NCBI RefSeq assembly: GCF_003334305.1
Contig: NZ_QOWS01000024.1
DNA: 64,000 bases
DNA from: Escherichia coli
Lineage (GTDB): Bacteria; Pseudomonadota; Gammaproteobacteria; Enterobacterales; Enterobacteriaceae
Strand: one strand, 5' to 3'
Positions 13,758 through 13,782 of this stretch are shown here, piece after piece; positions within the stretch are counted from its first letter, which is position 1; each line of letters starts with the position of its first letter. The notes below the pieces were generated by a model. That model worked only from the letters and a program-made list of their open reading frames with translations, made no database searches and was not told the DNA's origin. The position numbers and the translations under genes are program-made.

Positions 13758-13782
13758 CTGCTTTTTTATACTAACTTGAGCG
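13758..13782. other. attB: Bacteriophage lambda attachment site attB (BOB'), unoccupied
   Basis: Exact CTGCTTTTTTATACTAACTTGAGCG; 15-bp common core GCTTTTTTATACTAA at 13760-13774; lies between gal-side ybhC and bio-side ybhB. Confidence 0.9.

Follow-up and report, generated by a model that had tools for sequence, protein, structure and literature searches.

The integrase of phage lambda, Int, is a tyrosine recombinase, and the Gateway sites attB1 and attB2 are engineered 25-bp derivatives of lambda attB in which overlap substitutions enforce specificity. The architecture of the natural sites has been summarised in terms of B, B′, C, C′, O and arm-type sites, with O being 7 bp of identity between the recombination partners (PMC1807965). 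In E. coli, lambda attB has been placed between ybhC and ybhB at ~17 min (PMC3467070), and ybhC/ybhB is one of the island-rich loci in Escherichia (PMC9580842). The two genes are b0772 (ybhC) and b0773 (ybhB) in MG1655.

We compared these systems with a site in the 151-bp ybhC–ybhB spacer of the window, by which we mean the whole 64-kb stretch of E. coli DNA analysed. Window positions 13758–13782 read ctgcttttttatactaacttgagcg, and the first 21 of these bases, CTGCTTTTTTATACTAACTTG, are those of an attB oligonucleotide in print (PMC2831311). The published 21-bp attB architecture is present, with the 7-bp overlap TTTATAC lying between inverted core-type Int sites B and B′; unlike the overlaps of the Gateway sites, this one is wild type. 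The functional unit is the 21-bp B-O-B′ at 13758–13778, and the 25-bp frame used in the initial annotation has four extra bases on the bio side. Genes were assigned from open reading frames (ORFs), NCBIfam equivalog matches far over the cut-off and the RefSeq annotation of identical DNA. The site, its parts and its neighbours are as follows.

13758–13778, + strand: minimal lambda attB (B-O-B′), CTGCTTTTTTATACTAACTTG; same as the MG1655 site and the published oligonucleotide (PMC2831311).
13760–13774, + strand: 15-bp common core GCTTTTTTATACTAA, also in attP; single exact match, same as NC_001416 27724–27738.
13765–13771, + strand: 7-bp overlap region TTTATAC, bounded on its two sides by staggered points of Int cleavage; cleavage predicted from the sequence and general knowledge of att sites.
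13758–13766, + strand: predicted B core-type Int-binding site CTGCTTTTT, ybhC-side in lysogens; assigned from the sequence with the core-type consensus CAACTTNNT.
13770–13778, − strand: predicted B′ core-type Int-binding site CAAGTTAGT, ybhB-side in lysogens; from the sequence.
13832–13858, − strand: hairpin with a perfect 11-bp stem directly after the ybhB stop codon, not part of attB; RNA fold.
12430–13713, − strand: ybhC, the gal-side neighbour, start codon 46 nt from the core; ORF, NCBIfam PRK10531 (731 bits), annotation of identical DNA.
13865–14341, − strand: ybhB, the bio-side neighbour, stop codon 86 nt from B′; ORF, NCBIfam PRK10257 (343 bits), annotation of identical DNA.
14400–15689, − strand: bioA, first bio-cluster gene on the right; NCBIfam PRK07986 (916 bits), annotation.

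The core GCTTTTTTATACTAA has a single match in the 64-kb window, even when up to two mismatches are allowed (chance expectation 0.08, from shuffles). It aligns with the annotated lambda attP crossover site without divergence, all 15 bp being the same, and the 81 bp centred on it are the same as MG1655 attB, base for base. The stretch of identity to MG1655 is no shorter than 1,275 bp, and the genes on either side, as well as their orientation, are the same there. Published attL/attR oligonucleotide substrates have these B and B′ arms too (PMC1807965). The site is almost certainly the unoccupied primary attB (B-O-B′) of lambda and of lambdoid phages with the same integrase specificity. The initial annotation had proposed a primary lambda attB and had named alignment to the attP core and to published attB as the way to check it; that alignment gives identity for the core, the 21-mer and the 81 bp alike. 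Nothing in the data contradicts this identity, and attB at ybhC/ybhB is a textbook feature, already known and fully explained.

The comparison with attP (P-O-P′) separates what the two partners share from what only the phage site carries. The 15-bp core and the 7-bp overlap are the same in both, whereas the core-type sites differ, with C/C′ of attP reading CAGCTTT...AAGTTG and B/B′ of the window reading CTGCTTT...AACTTG. Lambda attP further comprises ~240 bp of arm-type Int, IHF, Xis and Fis sites; in contrast, we found no arm-type Int sites within 3 kb of the core in the window. The nearest matches to AGTCACTAT with at most one mismatch lie at 10036 and 17503, and the whole window holds eight such matches, equal to the chance expectation. 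The absence of arm-type sites near the core fits a simple partner site. Its most likely function, as suggested by its sequence, would be that of a simple partner captured by the Int/IHF–attP complex for integration. From sequence identity and comparative genomics, we infer that the site is recombination-competent in this strain.

Of 5,426 complete E. coli genomes searched with a 600-bp probe that had the site at its centre, 5,425 contained the locus, and in 3,492 of these it was unbroken. The split loci (~1,930/5,425) break at probe position 311, which corresponds to window position 13778. The site is thus empty in ~64% of complete E. coli genomes and interrupted exactly at the core in ~36%, counts that agree with the published description of ybhC/ybhB as island-rich. 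Matches of a 60-bp probe to split sites show a left half that stops at 13774 or, where the single mismatch predicted from a lambda P′ arm is included, at 13778; the right half begins at 13760, so that the 15-bp core is duplicated at both junctions. Wherever the site was intact among the genomes listed, the 60-bp probe matched one place per genome.

In both split genomes that we opened, a lambda-type int/xis pair adjoins ybhC. One of them, 2018-11-3CC, was followed end to end and contains a 47-kb lambdoid prophage between two core copies, bounded by an exact BOP′ on the ybhC side and an exact POB′ on the ybhB side. From the ybhC side, genes for a 356-aa integrase and an excisionase come after B-O-P′; on the ybhB side, tail-fibre genes are followed by P-O-B′. 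The 2018-11-3CC integrase is identical to lambda Int at 353 of 356 residues (99%), and in the other genome, O157:H7 M1300706001A, the same Int protein accession and the same int/xis pair occur at the same place, at the ybhC-side junction. In contrast, the window has a single core, no int/xis and no phage DNA at this locus. Both occupied loci share their B and B′ arms and their core with the window, and joining the attL B arm of an occupied locus to its attR B′ arm yields exactly the window sequence. A lambda-type attP is present in 43 phage records, including lambda, HK97, HK106, HK629, HK630 and 434. Judging from these genomes, the attB position is used for integration in nature, with prophages there bounded by BOP′ and POB′.

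Cargo of the 2018-11-3CC prophage includes a gene for a sensor-domain diguanylate cyclase, located after the tail-fibre genes and before attR (L007, 18674–20005). The same diguanylate cyclase gene name occurs in an insertion of ~11 kb within the attB-containing chunk of NZ_AP045783.1.

Natural variation at the site includes one substitution within B′. The isolate SC477 (NZ_LR778152.1) has an empty site with G → T at the equivalent of 13778, which alters the last base of B′ (AACTTT versus AACTTG).

Integration at the window site would be expected to proceed as for lambda. Int and IHF would assemble on the ~240 bp of supercoiled attP to form an intasome, which would then capture the naked 21-bp attB, with the core-binding and catalytic domains of Int occupying B (13758–13766) and B′ (13770–13778). 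The first pair of strands would be swapped at the left edge of TTTATAC (13765–13771), producing a Holliday junction, and the second pair at its right edge; identical overlaps in both partners would be required for the exchange. The product would have int and xis beside ybhC at attL (BOP′) and the tail-fibre end beside ybhB at attR (POB′), giving the classical order gal-attL-int...J-attR-bio. This arrangement matches that in the lysogen 2018-11-3CC.

We searched ORFs, NCBIfam matches and the MG1655 alignment for signs of occupation and found no integrase, excisionase or phage DNA at or near attB between ybhC and ybhB; the site is therefore empty. B and B′ are joined through one core only, with host genes on both sides, and insertions or deletions relative to MG1655 over the first 52 kb are of 1–3 bp only. 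The description of attB as empty and lying directly between ybhC and ybhB thus holds, given the 151-bp spacer, the colinearity with MG1655 and the lack of int. The description of the strain as non-lysogenic holds for the attB site, where there is no prophage, and cannot be stated beyond it.

An empty site could also have been emptied, through precise Int/Xis excision in an ancestor that regenerated attB. We regard this history as possible, although on the unlikely side. Occupancy of attB in ~36% of complete E. coli genomes means that gain and loss must be frequent, and precise excision leaves B-O-B′ scarless, so the sequence is compatible with a past prophage; however, there are no phage remnants and the arms are unaltered. 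Past occupancy bears on the history of the site and not on its identity or mechanism, and one sequence cannot separate it from a site that was never occupied.

Given that only 46 nt separate the core from the ybhC start codon downstream, a further explanation is that the sequence is kept mainly for a host function, as a ybhC promoter or 5′ leader, with phages exploiting a constrained sequence. Across five divergent strains, the spacer from 13714 to 13830 has a single substitution (the G → T of SC477 at 13778), whereas the flanking coding DNA has 3–8 changes per flank, and of the 26 full-length matches listed for the 60-bp probe, 24 are 100% identical. A host role of this kind nevertheless appears doubtful: no sigma-70-like promoter was detected in 13600–13960, the five strains are a small and closely related sample, and ~36% of genomes tolerate phage DNA in place of everything upstream of the core. 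It is also compatible with the attB explanation and does not exclude it. The invariance of the spacer hints at constraint, with five strains being too few for a conclusion, and we think it improbable that the near-invariance closest to attB reflects a host constraint such as a ybhC promoter or leader. If it did, it would explain why lambdoid phages chose an intergenic target, and integration would rewire ybhC expression in the occupied E. coli genomes, roughly one-third of the total.

A consensus scan of 13600–13960 for sigma-70 promoters and canonical terminators gave no hits of either kind. The terminator scan missed the ybhB hairpin because no T-run follows it. From its predicted fold, this hairpin is likely to be a 3′-end structure of the bioA–ybhB transcript. 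Spacer substitutions in the five divergent strains fall mostly in or beside the hairpin (13840–13863).

That the site is a chance look-alike, or a non-functional, secondary-att-like sequence that merely contains the core, has a negligible probability and a chance match is ruled out: a 15-mer could arise by chance (with two or fewer mismatches allowed, a match turned up in 8 of 100 shuffles), but here the exact match spans the full 21-bp B-O-B′ and the 81 bp of MG1655 attB with its flanks, the locus is the canonical ybhC/ybhB location, and ~1,930 genomes have insertions at exactly this position.

The primary attB, as we read the site, fixes the position of the window on the map of E. coli, from modF to ybiT at ~17 min. 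The window begins in the interior of modF, with galE ~1.5 kb away, and extends beyond bio as far as ybiT; bioA and then the divergent bioBFCD lie to the right of ybhB. The colinear part of MG1655 runs from 793.6 kb (modF interior, next to gal) to ~857.6 kb (past ybiT), in line with the initial annotation, which had assigned the window to the gal–bio neighbourhood.

The same annotation had described the strain as K-12-type, which the comparison overturns. Relative to MG1655, a 52-kb part has 718 mismatches (98.6% identity) and a 12-kb part has 63 (99.5%), a total of ~780 differences. Apart from its attB patch, the window is ~1.2–1.4% diverged from MG1655 and matches the wild strain A7 exactly: all three 25-kb chunks into which we divided the window are 100% identical to E. 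coli A7 (orangutan), whereas K-12 derivatives have 98.7–99.0% identity. The A7 counterpart of the whole window (1–64000) is NZ_CP028767.1 1576464–1640463. A K-12 origin is therefore ruled out. The patch identical to K-12 around attB extends only from 12914 to 14188, and the differences from MG1655 form a mosaic, with 0–63 per 2 kb. Near-identical K-12 patches were observed at 12–14 kb, 24–26 kb and 58–60 kb. Their distribution suggests that such patches may be recombination blocks in common with the K-12 lineage.

The site had also been called the only integration hot spot in view, and for large insertions this stands broadly. Of 5,426 genomes, 3,473 have the attB-containing 25-kb chunk in contiguous form, compared with 5,294 and 5,297 (~98%) for the other two; insertions below ~13 kb were merged, so these counts reflect larger ones. 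Neither of the two 25-kb chunks without attB has a large-insertion hot spot comparable to it, and smaller islands do occur elsewhere. A scan found no tRNA or tmRNA genes in the 64-kb window, which consequently offers no tRNA-type integration targets.

In practical terms, this is a strain without a prophage at the lambda site, and its attB is a locus where CRIM or Gateway-type tools can be used for Int-mediated single-copy integration. Beyond annotation, attB here matters little; the pan-genome count of ~64% empty and ~36% interrupted sites is the one figure of general use.

Several other features of the window were recorded. An Rfam search of the whole window found no RNA family at or near attB. 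A Moco riboswitch (RF01055, 103.6 bits) lies at 23344–23488 on the + strand, upstream of moaA. REP/BIME-type repeats of the Rfam families ES036 and naRNA4 are present at 22038–22079, 38742–38784 (− strand) and 44019–44089 (− strand), and two related 100-bp repeats at 12220–12414 lie between ybhJ and ybhC, just to the left of ybhC. Together, the REP/BIME-type and 100-bp repeats give rise to tens of extra BLAST places per genome. Near ~52026, between ybiO and glnQ, the window is without ~140 bp that MG1655 has (~845,602–845,741), and this extra MG1655 segment is similar to the REP-like repeats of the window at 22.0 kb and 38.7 kb. Small insertions within the chunks 20001–45000 and 39001–64000 occur in some lineages. 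O157:H7 and O145:H28 genomes have an espX2 island of ~2 kb inside a region that is contiguous in the window, and a few strains (for example, NZ_CP074824.1) have ~8.8 kb extra in the 39–64 kb chunk. For many genomes, the match to the window ends at 63834 or 63925, just after ybiT.
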